Shown here one piece after another: positions 2,345-13,086 of a stretch of DNA of 20,000 nt. Source of the DNA: Cirrosporium novae-zelandiae (Eukaryota); contig JAPETS010000057.1 in assembly GCA_026023565.1 (NCBI GenBank), forward strand, positions 123,658 through 143,657. Direction: 5' to 3'. The position numbers and the translations under genes are program-made. The notes beneath the pieces were generated by a model, which was given only the letters and a program-made list of their open reading frames with translations, was not told the origin of the DNA and made no database searches. Within the stretch, counting starts at the first letter, position 1. Each line of letters starts with the position of its first letter.

Positions 2345-3125
2345 TTTTTGGTATTTTTGGTCAATGCGTGTGAGATGAATAATCAGATGTGTGACACAAA
2401 CTGTAAGTAAAAGGTGAGCTATAGAAAGCACTGTTTTGTGGTAGTTTTTGAAACAACTGCTTTATTGGTGTCTTTATTTCTATCTCTAGACAAAGCGTAT
2501 AGGTTAGGTAGGTAACCGTGATCCTAGCTGATAAACAGGAGTTTTGTGCTTTGGTGTAAGTTGTAAGAGAAGATGAACTGTGGATAGCACTGTGTTGTGA
2601 TAGTTTTTTTTCAAATCTGGTTTATCAGTTTTTGTTATCGTGTTCTCGTGTGGTCGTGTAGTAGTGATGTTGTGTGGTCATGTGGTAGTGGTGTCGTGTG
2701 GTCGTGTGGTCTTGGTGTTGTGTTGTCGTTTTCAATTAGTGCGTGTCATTGGATGACTAGATGCTGATTCCAGTGAATAAATAGTGATACGGTTAATGCA
2801 GGTTGTAGTGAGACAAAGATCTATGAAAAACCACTGTTCTATGGTAGTTTTGTGAGCTTATCTTATTAGTTCTTATTGTCGTTTTGATTAGTGCGTGTAA
2901 ACTGGATGGCTAGACACTGATTCCGGTACAAGTAGTGACACGTTAAATGAAAGCGGTAATAGGGAGAAGAACTATGAAAATATGGTTCTGTGGTAGTTCT
3001 CGTGGGTCTGATTTATCAATCCTTGCTATCGTTTGATCAATGAGTGTATGCTAGATGACCAGATGGTGATTGCGGAATAGGAAAGTAAATAATGAAAAGC
3101 ACTGTTCTGTGATGGATCTTGAAGT
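2345..3125. repeat. Degenerate tandem array of about five ~120-160-bp units
   Basis: An anchor resembling CTATGAAAAGCACTGTTCTGTGGTAGTT recurs near 2419, 2578, 2821, 2972 and 3092. A second block resembling GTCGTTTTxATTAGTGCGTGT..TGGATGxCTAGA..CTGATTCC recurs near 2725, 2878 and 3027, with a partial copy near 2355. Confidence 0.8.
2646..2729. repeat. 24-bp (3x8-bp) GT-rich minisatellite, ~3.5 copies, nested in one unit of the larger array
   Basis: TCGTGTGGTCGTGTAGTAGTGATG (2646), TTGTGTGGTCATGTGGTAGTGGTG (2670), TCGTGTGGTCGTGTGGTCTTGGTG (2694), then partial TTGTGTTGTCGT. Confidence 0.85.
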
Positions 3126-4027
3126 TAATGATTGATCCTTGATCACTAGTATTGGGAGAAGAAGGCTGTCTAACAAAAAGAAAGAGTGCAGAAAATTTTT
3201 CAGTAAGAACTCCTAAGCTCCATCGGAGGGGTAGACATGTCTACCCATATCAATCCAGGTATCTTGCCGAGAAACCATTACATTATATTTTTATATTGAT
3301 AGAAAAAACAGAGACTGCCTTCGAGAGAGCAGCGTAGATAAAGAACATGCATATTTATATATTTTTTAATAGGTCTCTAAACACTTTAACTAGCAATTTC
3401 ACGGGAGTCACAGACCGGTGAGCTGCCTAAGTAAAGTGATGATACTATATGCATTATGAGAAGATATGTATATTCATGGGCGCATAGAGAATTAATTATT
3501 CAGGTCGTTAACCAGAGGGCGTCTTTAATGGTAGTACAAGTTGACAGACGTTGGCGAGTTGACGTTTGATATAAATCCAAATGCCAAGGCGCTAACTACT
3601 TCGGATTTAAATTCACGTCCAAACAATATCCACATGCCGATAGAATATTTTCTACTTCTACAGACAAAAGTCATAATAGTGAATACTAGGAATTAGGGTA
3701 GAGTTGTTGTACCCATACCCCATCACGTGCCCATCATAACGGTACTCCAAGAAGAAACAAACAGACCAGTCCTAGAAATGCAGACCCTTACATCATAATG
3801 ATCAAGTCTAATGATCTCATCCAGTCTGATCGATCAATGAAGCCAATATACAAAGCTACCAGAGATGCCCCCAAAGATGTATATATCAAGGGTAGATTTC
3901 TTCTTCAAATCTACAATCCACTATCCAATTTCATAATTTCACACTTGCAAATAATCAATTGAAAAAAAAATAACACTATTTTATAATCGCACTCATACCC
4001 CCTACAACTACAACTACACCAACCATA

Positions 4028-4622
4028 ATGTCTGGATACGAAGACCGAGATCCTCTAGACATTGCCAGGCAGGCAGAGCGAGAGCTTAACTCACACGGAG
4101 CTAAGCATGCACATAATATCAGCGACTCCTGTACGTCATCATCTCCCATCTCCCATTCCATTCCATTCCAGCCAGCTGAGGGCCCGAGGGTGAGTCGCAT
4201 GTTTGAATGTGCACTCGCTTGATTCTCCAATGTTGTGACTGCACATTCAAACATGCGACTCACCCTCGGTCCAAAACTTATAAACTTGGCTCAAATAAAA
4301 AAGCAATCGAATCCGGAATCGACGAGGGCGTGAACAAAAAATTCCCAGGCAGTACTACAAAATATGGTTCAGCTGCCTCAGGGGCAGGTGATAATCGGGA
4401 GATCCCTGTTGAGGAGGGCGGTGATATCCTCCCTAATAGTGAACGGTAAATATTTATTGTCTATGGGAATTTTTTACGTGTTGAGAGGTTAATATATATA
4501 TATTGGATAGAGCAACTAAAGCAAGAGATTTTGAGGGGCCGGGGGGCCCAGAGACGAAAACACCGTTGTATACGCAGGCAACCCCTGGGAACGACGATGT
4601 AAGGGGTAAATTAATTCGTTAG
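4028..4622 (+). CDS. Small hydrophilic Gly-rich fungal protein of unknown function (118 aa, 3 exons)
   Basis: Exons 4028-4130, 4304-4445, 4511-4622; introns GTACGT..AAG and GTAAAT..TAG. The joined frame is open: MSGYEDRDPLDIARQAERELNSH...SDSSIESGIDEGVNKKFPGSTTKYGSAASGAGDNREIPVEEGGDILPNSERATKARDFEGPGGPE...PGNDDVRGKLIR*. I recall the YGSAASGAGDNREIP and KARDFEGPGGPE motifs from a conserved Pezizomycotina hypothetical family. Confidence 0.8.
4181..4272. repeat. Inverted repeat (fold-back): 30-bp perfect arms 4184-4213 and 4240-4269, extendable to 38 bp with 3 mismatches, inside intron 1
   Basis: CCGAGGGTGAGTCGCATGTTTGAATGTGCA is the exact reverse complement of TGCACATTCAAACATGCGACTCACCCTCGG; the spacer is 26 nt. 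Confidence 0.97.
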
Positions 4623-4961
4623 GGCACTGAGGCCATTAGGCCGAGCGGCGGACCTCCTGGGCAATACGAGAACCAGAATAGAGGTATATTAGCAGTTAGT
4701 TGGACTTATGATTAGTATATGGAGGAATGATTTGGTTGCGAGTGAACGAAAGAAGTTTGTATATTATGAACTACTGTAATATCATTTGAAGCTGGATGCT
4801 ACTCATGCTAAGACTACTTTCGAAAGTACCTAGGTAGGTAGGTAGGTAATGAAAGCTAGCCTCTTATCGTTTATTCTACGAGGAAAGTATACTCATCGAC
4901 TTCTATGTTAGCAAGAAGACTGAGGCAAATATACATAGCCTCACATGTTGGTACTTCTACA

Positions 4962-5024
<63 letters not shown>
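4962..5024. repeat. (TAC)21 microsatellite
   Basis: Pure 63-nt TAC tract between two convergent genes. Confidence 0.97.
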
Positions 5025-5026
<2 letters not shown>

Positions 5027-5286
5027 CAAACCCCTTAGATACAATATCGAAAGAGAATTGTATTTCATTGCATTAGATTACTTGAACATCCCCTTCTAGC
5101 TATTGACAATGATTACTTCATTTCTGCAGTTTCTCTAAACATGAAAGTAACGTGCACATAGCCCTCTGCTATGATACTTTTGCGCCTCATGTAGTCATGT
5201 CCATGCCTGTTTCTTGGCCGCATCCAAGTCTCCACCAGATACGTCGAAATATTGATGAACTATTCGCTAGTTGACATAATTGAGGT

Positions 5287-6068
5287 TCAATTATAGAACC
5301 AAAGCTCAGCAGTAAATGAAACAGAGACATTCTTCAGCTCATCGTAACAACTAGCTGGAATCACACCTCCAACAGTCTCAACAACGTAAATTTCTTTAAA
5401 GCCAACAGAGCCTCGACGGGCCGTCCATTTTGCCCAGTCAATGTTCTTACTGTCAGGAGCCTCGATGGTCGCATTGAGCTCACCGATGAAACAGCCCTCA
5501 GGACCAAGTTCGAAGCGAGGGATGTAGTTATTAATATATTCGAGGTAGCCGATTTCGGTCAGAGTGTTGTTGTAGAGGTCTCCATAGGGGAACTCGTAGA
5601 GATAGCCTGGAAGTTCGTGGAATTGACTTTCAGTAAGGTGGGCGATGCTCACATTGTAGATGGTGGCATTCACTCCGAGGAAGATTGGTGAGATACCACC
5701 ATTCACCGAGATACATTCGTAGTTATAGTAACCGGCTTCGAGACCAAGGAGCTGAAGGGCCAAGCCGCTGCTAAGAGCGGGGAGAGTCTGGACACCTAAG
5801 CATGGTCAGCAGATTAAAATAGGAATAAGTAGGCTTAAGAGATTTTGTGAGATGTGAAATAACTTCAAGAAGACTGTAAAAAGACGAGGGAGCAGGAAGA
5901 ACAATGCCACGTACCATCACCCAGAGGCAGGCTATAGTGATCCAAGGAATATTCACGCTTCAGATGGATTGTGCTTTCCAGCACAGTACGAGATTCAACG
6001 GTACTCAGGATAGAGCCAAAGAGAAAGATGAAAGAAAAAAGTTTCAGGAGGAATTGTACGAAAGACAT
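5287..6068 (-). CDS. Secreted DUF3455-like protein (220 aa, 2 exons)
   Basis: Exons 6068-5915 and 5795-5287; intron GTACGT..GCTGAC..TAG. Hydrophobic signal peptide MSFVQFLLKLFSFIFLFGSILSTVES. Motifs LPALSSGLALQLLGLEAGYYNYEC, APDSKNIDWAKW, EIYVVETVGGVIPASC and VSFTAELWFY resemble DUF3455 (G.G.QNY.C / I.WL.L / VYRV.T.GG.PP..C / Y.A.Y.FY). Confidence 0.8.
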
Positions 6069-8066: not shown

Positions 8067-8743
8067 ATGGCTGAGATATTGACTGAACAGATTGATGCTC
8101 TGAGGGAAAAGCAGCGGAAAATGGAGGCCCCCTCAGAAGCTTCAACCAAGGATCAAGATACAACTCCCAAGCAATTACCAAAAGGTGTTGTTCTTGGTAA
8201 AGATGGCAAACCGTGAGATACTTTTACTGCTTTAAGTTTGGAGTAAAACTGAACATTTAATATAGATGTCGTTCATGCACATCAGTTGCAAGTTGGTTAG
8301 CTATGGCCAAAAAGAACCCGTCCGCCCAAAGTCCAAATTCTTCAACTCCAAGCACTCCCAATAGTACCTCCACATCCCTCTCCACATCTCTACCCAGGGA
8401 TTGCCCCCCTGATGTCGAACAGCTGGGAAGAGGCTCCTGGCGACTCTTACATTCCATAGCAGCTACATATCCAGAAAAAGCGACACACACTCAGCAGAAC
8501 GAGATGCGGCAGTTCCTGCTATATTTCTCCAAGTTCTATCCATGCTGGACCTGCGGGGAAGGCTTCAACTCTTGGATGACAAAAAAAGGACACGAACCAA
8601 GAGTAGAAGGTAGGGATACGCTAGGTCAGTGGATGTGTGAGGCACATAATGTGGTTAATAGAAGACTGGGAAAACCGGAGTTTGATTGTAGCAAGGTGGA
8701 TGAAAGATGGAGAACTGGTTGGAAAGATGGGAGATGTGATTGA
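8067..8743 (+). CDS. ERV1: Mitochondrial FAD-linked sulfhydryl oxidase Erv1 (207 aa, 2 exons)
   Basis: Exons 8067-8212 and 8266-8743. Splicing yields LGKDGKPCRSC (N-terminal shuttle disulfide), DCPPDVEQLGRGSWRLLHS, redox motif YPCWTC, WMCEAHNVVNRRLGKPEFDC, and C-terminal WRTGWKDGRCD. Confidence 0.97.
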
Positions 8744-9129: not shown

Positions 9130-12100
9130 TCATAATCCACCAACAAATAGCCTGTATCCGCTAGCCGGAGCACCGATTTCACACACATCACAGACCTTGC
9201 ATACCGTGCCCTTGAATTCAGGAACATACCTTGAACCATCAAAAGGACAAGTCACACTTGGAGCATTACCGTAAATAGGCTTATAAGAGGCAGCACAGAC
9301 ATCAAATTCTGCAAAGTGGTCGAACTCAATATCAATCTTATCGTGGGGATTCCGTTCACACTGGTTTTTGATCTTACGAGCCTGGACAGTTTCGTTAGTT
9401 TAGTCACCAATCAAAAAGATATTTGTATCGTACCTGGTCTAAAAGTTTTTGGGATCCGCCGTTAGCTAACATCCGATTCGCAAAGTTCAAAGCGGATGAG
9501 TAATTTTTATTTGTCAGAGACTGCTTCATCGCAGCCATGAGAGCTAGTTGCCGATGAGCTACTTCGAGCTTTGGTATCGTGAACAGTGCGGATAACTCCA
9601 AATTCCTCTTCAAGTTCTCCTCAGAGCCAGTCCCGAGAGACCGACGGTGGAGCTCTATTGACATTGCAATAGTATATTCAGTTGCTTTTGATATTATCCT
9701 CATAGCCTCATCAGCGTCTGCCTGAGAAGAAACAGCATTCACGAGCAAGCAATGCAGGATTCGCTTGAATATTTTGACTCCATCCTCGAGCTTGTTGGTT
9801 CTCATGGCCGTATAACCTTCCTGCAGATCTTTTTGTGCAATAGACTCTAGGTTTCGAGGAATCATAGGCAGAATCTTACGAGTATCTGTCTCATCGACGG
9901 TTCTTCTCACATAGTTGACAAGAGGCGGTAAACCCACGTTTGCAGGTAAGTAGGTTTTGGAGGCTTCATAGATTTCCATGAACCGAGGTTTGAGAGGCTC
10001 AAAGTTGACTGCCCCAACTTGTCGGTTGAGGAGCTGCATTGCGGTTTCAAATGATCCAGCAGCAACATGGTCCGCCGCAACTGGCGAATTGCGTGCCCAC
10101 AATTCGGCCTCACTGGTGCCGGTGCCGGCCTCAGAACTCTCAACGTTAACAAAATCACTGTCGGCTTCCACGGTGATATCATCTCCCATGTCCCAGCCAA
10201 TAACTTCCTCATCGTCCTCCTGGCCTAGGGTATCAGCCGCTAAGGCTGTATCTTCGAAGGTATCATCGCCATCAAACCCATTTACAGCAGAAGGAATTTC
10301 TTCGTCTCCTCCAACTTCACCCAATAGTGCCTTTTCAAAGAAGGAATGGGAAGCTGTCTTTACAGGCCAGTTAACCTTGAATGTTGATACAATGGCTCTT
10401 GGCTTGCCGGCTGGAGTACCAAGAGGAGGAAGGTTGATCTGGTCTTCGCTAAGACCAGTGGCTTCCAGAATTGAGGCACATTCTTCAGTCATATTGTTGG
10501 CCTTTGCGGCCATATAAGCCAAAGGATCTTTGTAGATCAGATCAGTATATGTCAAAATAATAAGCGAGCAGGAAATTACTCACAAAGGTCAACATCCTTG
10601 AACATCTGTATCCTACCCTCCACGTCGCCCCTATAAAGAGCATTTTGGAACTGGGACGTAAAATCGCCTCGATGTTCTGCAATTTTCGCCATTCGAGAAA
10701 GCTTCTCATCATCACCAGTAGTGAGATAAAGGAACGATAGCTTATCGAAATTGTGCAATTTTTGATAAGTCATCTCTACGATCTGGTGATTTCCATGGGC
10801 AAGCGCTTCAGTACCAAGGCGCATCCACAATTTCGGTCGGTCAAGTTGCTTCGCCATCTCCACGGCGACGTCCAGGTTCCCGCATTCAATAGCAAGCTCA
10901 AATCTAGTTTGAGGATCCTGTACGAATTGCAAGGCAATTTCAGGATAGCCTTTCTTCTGCAAATAGGAGATTATGCTTTGGCCAACCAGACTAGATGTCT
11001 TAATAATTTGCAGCATTTCGTCGTAACTCCTCTTGACCAATGCTAACTTGAATCGATATTCGGTGGGATCAATAGTAAGAATCTTGGGCTTCGCAGCCCT
11101 GTCAAGACAGTAGACATGCTTTCCTTTGACTCTAACCAAGTACATTGTTTGATCAAGGGTCCTAACAATTCCATTATCGCCATTGAGCAGTGTATATTTC
11201 ACATGGTTTAGTGTGGAATAGAGCAGGACACCCGAATCATCCCAAGAGGCGCTTTTGATTCTAATGGTCTCATGGAGAGTGCTAACCTGGGCTAGAGCCT
11301 TTGTGACTATCGTTACGTTGTGCTTGCTCAGAAGTGCAGCATACTGGCCGTCTCCGGACCAGACCACGTACTTAACCCCGGTGACGCTAAGCTCTGCAAG
11401 CTGCTTCTTTTGTTGAATATCATAAAGATAGACGGTAGTTGGAGTAATTAGAAGCAGGCAGCCGGTCCCACCAAAGTATGCGTCAACTGTTCCCACTGGC
11501 GGTTTAATGGTCTTGGTAGTGGAGTTTGAAAGATCTTTAATATCAATTTGCTGGGTTGATTGATTGAAGACCGCAAATCGGTTCCTGGCCACAAAAACTG
11601 CCGAATTTCCTTGCCCGCGCTTGATATCCGTTGGCTCAACGGCACCGGATGCATCTCGCGGAAGGTGCATGAGCTCATACACGCCGCTGTCTGTCGGAGA
11701 TGTCACAAGTATCGCTCGTTCCGCAGGATTGTAAGACAAAGTCCGTGGAGGTACCCAAGGATTTCCAAGGTTCTTCAGAGACAGCATAGGGGGCGACTCG
11801 ATGTTTCGTTGGAAATCGTATGACTTGACATGCTTATCCTTGGTAATGTAAAACAACTGTTGTTGATGAACTGCAGAGGCAGGTCTTTCTCGTTCAAGTT
11901 TGAAGACCATAACGCCATTGTCGTGGCCAGCTGCGAAAAGGTTAATTTCAGGATGGGCGGCGATAACCCAAAAACGATCATTCTCGCGTTTGAAAGATTG
12001 AACAGATGTGCGTTTATTGAGATCCCAGACACGAATAGTCTTGTCTTCCCCAACAGATAATATAAGGTCTTGATGAGGGTGGAATAGGCAGGCAGAAGCG

Positions 12101-13086
12101 TTTTGGAAGTGGCCGCGACATGTGTCAACCTCCCAAGCCTTGGTTTCTATAACGTGTTAAGAAGTTTTCAAACCATAAGCTGGGAGACATACCACTCATC
12201 CTCCAAAGCTTAACGAGCCTGTCATCGCCAGCGGATATAATCAGCGGCAATGTTGGATGGAAGGACACCCAGTTAACGCCCCTATCGTGACCCTCTAAGA
12301 CAAACTTCACCACGGCGTCCGTATTTCCAAACATATCTGCCTGGTTGGCATTGGATCTGGCCATTTGATCCTCGAATGTCATAGACGTCGGCGCAGAGTG
12401 TTTTTTTCTTAAGCCTGAAATATCCCATACCCTGACTGACTGATCCAAGGACGCAGAAACTACCAGGTCTTCTTTGGGGTGAAACTGAGCGCACATAACG
12501 TAGTGATTGTGTCCGGTCATCGTACATACTAATTTAATATTAGCAGCAATCCGGAGCTAAAGCAATTAGAGGCCACTCACTCAACGATCTATTTTGCCAA
12601 TTCCATATTCTTATGGTCTGGTCATCTGAACTAGAAAGGATCCATGGAAGCTCATGGTGGAAGAAAACGGTTCGCACGTAGTCTAAATGACCATTCAACG
12701 TGAACAGACATCGTCTGGTTTGGTACGACCAGACTTTGATCTTGTAATCGTCTCCCCCGGAAACGAACAAGGGTTGTGTTTTATGAAAATCGATTCCTCG
12801 TACAGGTCCATCATGCTCCTCGAACCGATCGATAAGGGTCCCCATACGGTAATCCCATAACTGAATTGTAGAAGAATGAAGCGAGACAAGAATCCATGGC
12901 CTGCATAAGATTAGCACAATGTTAAAAGCAAAATCGCAATTCGGTGAGAGGACCTTTTGGGGTGAAAGGCAATGCCCTTGGCTCTTGAAGATTTTGACTC
13001 GAACTAGAAATTATATGTCAGTGTTGTGTAAACCTCTATAGCTTAGATAAACACACCTTTGTTAACATGGTTGGAGAGGACTGCAT
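9130..13086 (-). CDS. COP1: Coatomer subunit alpha (alpha-COP; COP1/RET1/SEC33), 1214 aa, 7 exons
   Basis: Exons 13086-13057, 13003-12954, 12900-12581, 12528-12193, 12146-10584, 10527-9434 and 9381-9130 join in one frame (3645 nt). N-terminus [37 protein letters not shown]40 repeats ([20 protein letters not shown]), [22 protein letters not shown], and Cys-rich C-terminus [17 protein letters not shown]. Confidence 0.98.

Follow-up and report, generated by a model that had tools for sequence, protein, structure and literature searches.

Several kinds of short, hairpin-forming or structured sequence have been described in fungal genomes and introns. Fungal MITEs include Guest of Neurospora, mimp of Fusarium and the EFT families of Epichloe, and low-copy families with fewer than 10 full copies have been accepted as MITEs in small fungal genomes (PMC3227409). 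The introner-like elements (ILEs) of Dothideomycetes are complete introns that are longer and more structured than ordinary introns, with copy numbers that can reach the hundreds (PMC3609843). The sister (stw)introns of Hypoxylaceae carry terminal inverted repeats of 45-55 nt, have no flanking duplications and are integrated seamlessly at new exonic positions (PMC8469720), and the introners of ascomycetes have been described as outliers that lack the signatures of target-site duplications and terminal inverted repeats (PMC9860276). In yeast, base-pairing within introns of the RPS17B type shortens the distance between the 5' splice site and the branch point (PMC2536676).

Here we analysed a 20-kb stretch of DNA (20,000 nt; hereafter the window, whose positions are used throughout) from Cirrosporium novae-zelandiae, in which a preliminary description had noted a long perfect hairpin inside the first intron of a small protein gene. 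Cirrosporium is assigned to the class Xylobotryomycetes (PMC6712537), and the papers listed for the genus include none on repeats or introns, judged by title. The intron contains a hairpin, multiple copies of the hairpin-forming segment are present, and orthologous genes carry hairpin-free introns at the same, ancestral position.

The host gene and the fold-back in its first intron

The host is a small three-exon gene on the plus strand, with a spliced CDS of 357 nt that encodes 118 amino acids. Exon 1 (4028-4130), taken from the ORF list and the CDS check, begins with ATG at 4028 and comprises 34 codons plus one base. It is followed by intron 1 (4131-4303; 173 nt, phase 1, GTACGT...AAAAAG), which is supported by the CDS check and by the borders of an annotated protein, and by exon 2 (4304-4445), placed by the CDS check and the match to that protein. 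Intron 2 (4446-4510; 65 nt, GTAAAT...ATAG) separates exon 2 from exon 3 (4511-4622), which in the CDS check is coding to 4619 and closes with a TAG stop at 4620-4622. The product of exons 1 and 2 is identical to the annotated 82-residue 'MAG: hypothetical protein M1834_007967 [Cirrosporium novae-zelandiae]'; exon 1 corresponds to its first 34 residues, and its model uses the same intron 1 borders, with GTACGT at 4131 and AAG ending at 4303. The annotated 82-residue model misses intron 2, ending at a TAA within the GTAAAT donor and thus lacking exon 3. Orthologues go on with TKARDFEG.GGPE...DDVR.N.R, and the window encodes this stretch at 4511-4619. On this comparison the true product of the gene is likely the 118-residue protein, which would correct the public gene model. 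The protein family is widespread in Pezizomycotina (122 hits, at up to 100% for M1834_007967 itself), and no Pfam family matched either the exon pieces or five full-length members.

Two further features of the region were recorded alongside the gene model. The TAG at 4620-4622 occupies the position of a Gln codon (CAG or CAA) in most orthologues, and the frame past it, to 4715, reads GTEAIRPSG..., resembling the orthologue tails RQGGETxRPxG. A stop at the same codon together with a conserved in-frame tail was also seen in L001 (TAA), L048 (TAG) and L050 (TAA) among the 21 distinct sequences listed, a pattern that may be due to repeated recent truncations or to readthrough of the stop codon. 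A long trinucleotide microsatellite follows the gene closely on its downstream side, at about 4940-5040, and its translation gives runs of some 20 Leu, Tyr or Thr residues, depending on which of the three plus-strand frames is read. Pfam matches farther along the window identify a DUF3455 protein (5287-5805, minus strand), an Erv1/Alr sulfhydryl oxidase (8261-8743, plus strand) and the coatomer alpha subunit (9404-13010, minus strand), the last in several ORF pieces split by short introns.

Repeat search and folding placed the fold-back of intron 1, a palindromic repeat copy, at 4181-4272, with a left arm at 4181-4216, a loop at 4217-4236 and a right arm at 4237-4272. The arms are 36 nt each, spaced by 20 nt and 94% complementary (2/36 positions differ), and they include an uninterrupted stem of 30/30 bp formed by 4184-4213 and 4240-4269. 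The whole element begins 50 nt past the true donor and ends 31 nt ahead of the acceptor. Intron 1 (173 nt) had a minimum free energy of -72.9 kcal/mol, compared with -34.3 +/- 3.5 kcal/mol for 200 dinucleotide shuffles (z = -10.97), none of which was as stable (0/200), and 4184-4269 by itself reached -63.5 kcal/mol. Five inverted pairs of at least 20 nt within 400 nt were found in the 20-kb window, and only 4181-4272 exceeded 24 nt and 83% complementarity. The 92-nt fold-back with 30 perfect base pairs reported in the preliminary description is thereby confirmed.

The left arm contains the consensus-like cryptic donor GTGAGT (4190-4195, plus strand), and the right arm contains its reverse complement ACTCAC (4258-4263, plus strand), which reads GTGAGT on the minus strand. 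As originally proposed, the two pair with each other within the stem, and in the pre-mRNA ensemble, calculated over 4028-4445, both had a P(unpaired) of 0.000. The other splice signals stayed largely open over this stretch, with a mean P(unpaired) of 0.54 at the true donor and of 0.90 in the acceptor region. Joining the cryptic donor to the regular acceptor (4189/4304) leads to a stop at codon 64 (TGA, 4331-4333), so the predicted frameshift to a nearby TGA holds. The motif RCTRAY, described earlier as lacking near the AAG acceptor, is absent throughout intron 1. There are two matches to CTNAY. One, CTCAC at 4259, lies within the stem and places its A 41 nt ahead of the acceptor. The other, CTTAT at 4277-4281 (plus strand), is the only one outside the stem; its A is 23 nt ahead of the acceptor, and its mean P(unpaired) is 0.70. 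On these grounds CTTAT would be the likeliest branch site of intron 1. AG dinucleotides in the intron are confined to 4170, 4174, 4179, 4187, 4193 and 4302.

The borders of this copy were inspected at 4177, 4181 and 4184 on the left and at 4269 and 4272 on the right. None of these plausible borders is flanked by a target-site duplication, in line with the initial reading of the sequence. When translated, the element (41 amino acids, minus strand) had words in common with a single candidate and resembled no protein at E <= 10 among longer proteins.

Dispersed copies and hairpin-free orthologous introns

Within the 20-kb window the element has no further copy. A 26-mer search with as many as 3 mismatches allowed recovered the two arms alone. 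With blastn-short, the element had no match above 13 nt elsewhere in the window and none at E <= 1 among 80 orthologous loci, and a 22-nt arm pattern gave 0 matches in metagenome contigs. We therefore turn to copies outside the window, which were sought in one DNA run of Logan contigs (36 million letters) that carries 0.92 of the sampled words of the locus. Contigs were aligned to 3800-4800 at a likeness of at least 80%, and 18 records were placed. Two other runs of the same study, from other organisms, gave no match to the locus.

The locus itself is represented by two records, 3800-4211 and 4240-4800, both with 0 differences and both breaking inside the palindrome. In these contigs each arm runs without a break into its own flank, the left arm into the upstream sequence and the right arm into the downstream sequence, again with 0 differences. 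The loop of this copy lacks independent confirmation, as no listed contig spans 4212-4239. At least seven other contigs carry a segment of about 86 nt corresponding to 4184-4269, the perfect 30-bp stem with its apical part, at 5-19% difference and between unlike flanks; the count rests on the contigs of a single run, perhaps the source of the window's assembly. In the six other contigs that are listed (8300, 11994, 478, 2430, 27175 and 9647 nt), the match is confined to 4177-4269 and gives way to unlike sequence. Their matching spans are 50-91 nt, with 4/55, 9/91, 10/87, 4/77 (plus a 9-nt deletion), 15/78 and 8/50 letters differing, respectively. Three contigs extend the alignment to the left, to 4177 or 4179.

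At position 4234, in the asymmetric loop, seven contigs have C and the window has T, which indicates at least seven other copies with the same loop in the same orientation. Summed word depth was 2881-3405 in three bins over 4174-4275 compared with 332-355 elsewhere, although contig depth is not equivalent to copy number. The contigs with other copies have word depths of 297-368, like those of the locus contigs, which suggests that they come from the same genome. These results support a dispersed family and agree with the proposal of a mobile-type fold-back, for which multiple copies had been expected; a single copy in the genome would instead have pointed to a neutral local inverted duplication.

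Three observations on the copies stand apart from this count. Two of the other copies have a common flank beyond 4264 (agreement 0.85), which may mark a sub-family whose right end differs, or else a segmental duplication. The idea of a stronger conservation of the arms than of the loop was dropped, since the listed differences lie more than about 31 nt from the ends of the aligned pieces and thus cover only 4210-4239. An ACTAAC behind 4269, considered as a sign of another intronic copy, was also discarded, as it belongs to a consensus of three contigs with an agreement of 0.53 and is not a real sequence.

The age of the host intron was assessed by scanning metagenome contigs with a 30-sequence alignment of the protein family. 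This yielded 80 orthologous loci, of which 75 contained exons 1 and 2 and 59 were distinct; their introns are automatic models made by script, without RNA support. Of the 59 distinct loci, 52 received an intron model at the homologous site, which was in phase 1 in 51 cases and in phase 2 in one (L067). Modelled lengths ranged from 48 to 226 nt with a median of 76.5 nt, and 21/52 were at least 100 nt long. As many as 9/52 were at least 173 nt, so the description of the Cirrosporium intron as oversized does not hold against its orthologues. The longest perfect stem in any orthologous intron was 7 bp, compared with 30 bp in the window, and no part of the element was found in the 80 orthologous loci.

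The remaining seven of the 59 loci were labelled 'continuous ORF'. For at least L014, L025 and L028 it cannot be relied on, as their sequences show GTATGT or GTACGT donors together with CTAAC-type branch sites, and only L003, L005 and L010 clearly lack intron 1. Three distinct metagenome sequences (L003/L004, L005 and L010) read straight through the intron 1 site, which could reflect intron loss or contigs derived from transcripts.

Taken together, the comparison indicates that the position and phase of intron 1 are ancestral and would be older than the divergence of these Pezizomycotina, and that the hairpin is, on the loci compared, specific to the lineage of the window. Given hairpin-free orthologous introns at the same site and phase, the fold-back is best read as a lineage-specific insertion into an old intron. 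An ancestral intron also means that the fold-back did not create intron 1. The proposal of an intron-generating element consequently finds no support at this locus, where intron site and phase are common to hairpin-free orthologues.

Origin and possible roles of the fold-back

We consider it rather likely that the fold-back is one copy of a short, non-coding, palindromic dispersed repeat that resides as a tolerated passenger in an ancestral intron. The repeat is about 86-93 nt long, non-coding and almost wholly composed of inverted repeat. It looks like a MITE-like or fold-back-type element rather than one to be filed as a MITE proper, and we prefer the label 'MITE-like' because this copy has no target-site duplication. 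The repeat would have been inserted in mid-intron by transposition or a similar process, lengthening an intron of about 81-87 nt to the present 173 nt. In the pre-mRNA the arms are predicted to pair, which would bury GTGAGT in the 30-bp stem and leave it unable to compete with the true GTACGT donor. The folded-out insert would at the same time keep the distance from the true donor to the branch site and acceptor near that of the uninterrupted intron. Masking of the donor and shortening of this distance may be the reasons why the insert is tolerated, and its neutrality is likewise presumed. Under the folding model, intron 1 is predicted to be spliced as modelled, with the cryptic donor silent.

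Two points do not sit easily with a MITE-like passenger. A cut-and-paste DNA transposon should leave a target-site duplication, although one could have decayed, the arms themselves differing at 2/36 positions. The passenger reading also leaves unexplained the consensus donor hexamer on both strands, which could be due to chance or part of the biology of the family.

A rival possibility is that the family is of introner type, like ILEs or the Hypoxylaceae sister introns, and would have spread by RNA or break repair, creating new introns elsewhere, with one copy landing here in an existing intron. The short, very stable hairpin, its near-complete symmetry and the absence of a target-site duplication are traits also described for those systems (PMC8469720, PMC3609843), and the outlying ascomycete introners without target-site duplication or terminal inverted repeat signatures (PMC9860276) point the same way. 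GTGAGT lies 6 nt inside the common segment on both strands and could thus offer a 5' splice site in either orientation. However, 4184-4269 has no AG after GTGAGT and no RCTRAY and so cannot be a complete intron, which is a second argument against the intron-generating interpretation. The sequence common to the copies begins 6-13 nt upstream of the GT, whereas the repeat unit of an ILE is the intron itself. The host intron is ancestral with the element internal to it, the further contigs number about seven as opposed to the hundreds of copies given for ILEs (PMC3609843), and the sole intron-like flank among the copies, the ACTAAC already set aside, comes from the weak three-contig consensus. 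We therefore consider an introner-type origin unlikely. A more specific version, in which a symmetrical family with the donor GTGAGT on both strands borrows a downstream AG, and in which the present copy made a nested landing whose stem silences that donor, is to our judgement distinctly unlikely. If an introner-type reading were true, the family would belong to an almost unsampled class of Ascomycota, the Xylobotryomycetes.

Nested, stwintron-like models were considered for intron 1 through candidate micro-exons ending at 4189. The micro-exon 4172-4189 is in frame and holds a TGA, and 4176-4189 shifts the frame. The third, 4181-4189, is in frame and would change S to WPEA, but it needs a 50-nt intron that ends in GAG and has no branch motif, and the resulting insert occurs in no orthologue. 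Judged from the sequence, nested models do not work at this intron, because the micro-exons hold a stop, shift the frame, or need a branchless GAG acceptor and residues seen in no orthologue.

Another interpretation holds that the hairpin is an intron-hosted precursor of milRNA or siRNA. Once intron 1 had been spliced out, the 30-bp stem would be processed by Dicer into small RNAs directed against the repeat family or other targets. The perfect 30-bp stem with its 20-nt apical region has a fitting size and shape, and transposon-derived hairpins become miRNA genes in plants. Rfam detected a generic resemblance to miRNA precursors on both strands (8 matches, 20-32 bits, E 0.0006-0.4). All 8 matches nevertheless fall far under the gathering scores of 53-100 bits, any long hairpin would give such matches, and on these sub-threshold scores the hairpin belongs to no RNA family described in Rfam. 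Since the orthologues have no hairpin, such a role would have to be young and lineage-specific, and we regard it as improbable.

The proposal that the stem acts as a regulated switch fares worse. Melting of the stem would expose GTGAGT for use with the 4303 acceptor, and the premature stop at codon 64 would bring about NMD-type down-regulation; the cryptic GTGAGT is no poorer a match to the fungal consensus than the true GTACGT. The stability of the isolated stem (-63.5 kcal/mol) and a P(unpaired) of 0.000 make an equilibrium switch unlikely, however, and full pairing argues for masking instead. Neither arm has an alternative pairing partner in the intron fold, the structure is absent from all orthologues examined, and the same sequence is present at other, unrelated places. 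A regulatory switch thus appears very improbable.

Least credible is an origin of the inverted repeat as a local inverted duplication or an artefact of assembly, unrelated to anything elsewhere, which could appeal to the unbridged 4212-4239 and to the possibility that the sole run with the locus was the assembly source, but which is at odds with the continuity of each arm with its own flank at 0 differences in that run's contigs, with the same segment, asymmetric loop included, in at least seven other contigs, and with flanking exons that form one conserved gene in the expected order.

With the passenger reading as the preferred one, the hairpin would belong to a palindromic repeat family of low copy number in a fungal lineage that has been little sampled, as a fairly ordinary element and not a new splicing device. 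It would provide a natural example of a short fungal intron that withstands being doubled in length, plausibly owing to a self-folding insert that hides its own strong donor.

Comparison with known elements

Like fungal MITEs (PMC3227409), the Cirrosporium repeat combines a short, non-coding sequence with inverted-repeat termini, several diverged copies of homogeneous size and a genic location. Unlike them, it shows no target-site duplication, and its 36-nt arms and 20-nt loop make up nearly all of the element, leaving no distinct interior.

The resemblance to the ILEs of Dothideomycetes (PMC3609843) lies in size, unusually stable predicted structure, repeated copies and intronic position. Although the intron shares the stable structure and greater length of ILEs, the latter must be read with the 9/52 orthologous introns that are equally long or longer and have no hairpin. 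In contrast to ILEs, which have a donor, branch point and acceptor at newly gained positions, the repeat has neither an acceptor nor a canonical branch point, is not a complete-intron unit and marks no new intron position; it is internal to an ancestral intron and found in about seven further contigs.

The yeast introns (PMC2536676) are alike in mechanism only, in that an internal stem folds out bases and the splice signals are kept near. There the pairing is conserved and functional in long introns, whereas here it appears to be a by-product of insertion with a presumed effect.

With the Hypoxylaceae sister (stw)introns and the type-2 cropped sister introns (PMC8469720), compared by description, the repeat shares near-complete symmetry, a hairpin RNA and the absence of short flanking tandem duplications, and a low to moderate copy number within one lineage. 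In the Hypoxylaceae elements, repeats of 45-55 nt form the two ends of the intron and bear its splice signals, whereas the 36-nt arms described here lie 50 and 31 nt inside the intron borders, the splice sites of the host intron lie beyond the element, and a nested [D1,2] donor is lacking. The family merits screening, as the elements that spread introns in other ascomycetes are likewise symmetrical repeats that lack target-site duplications.
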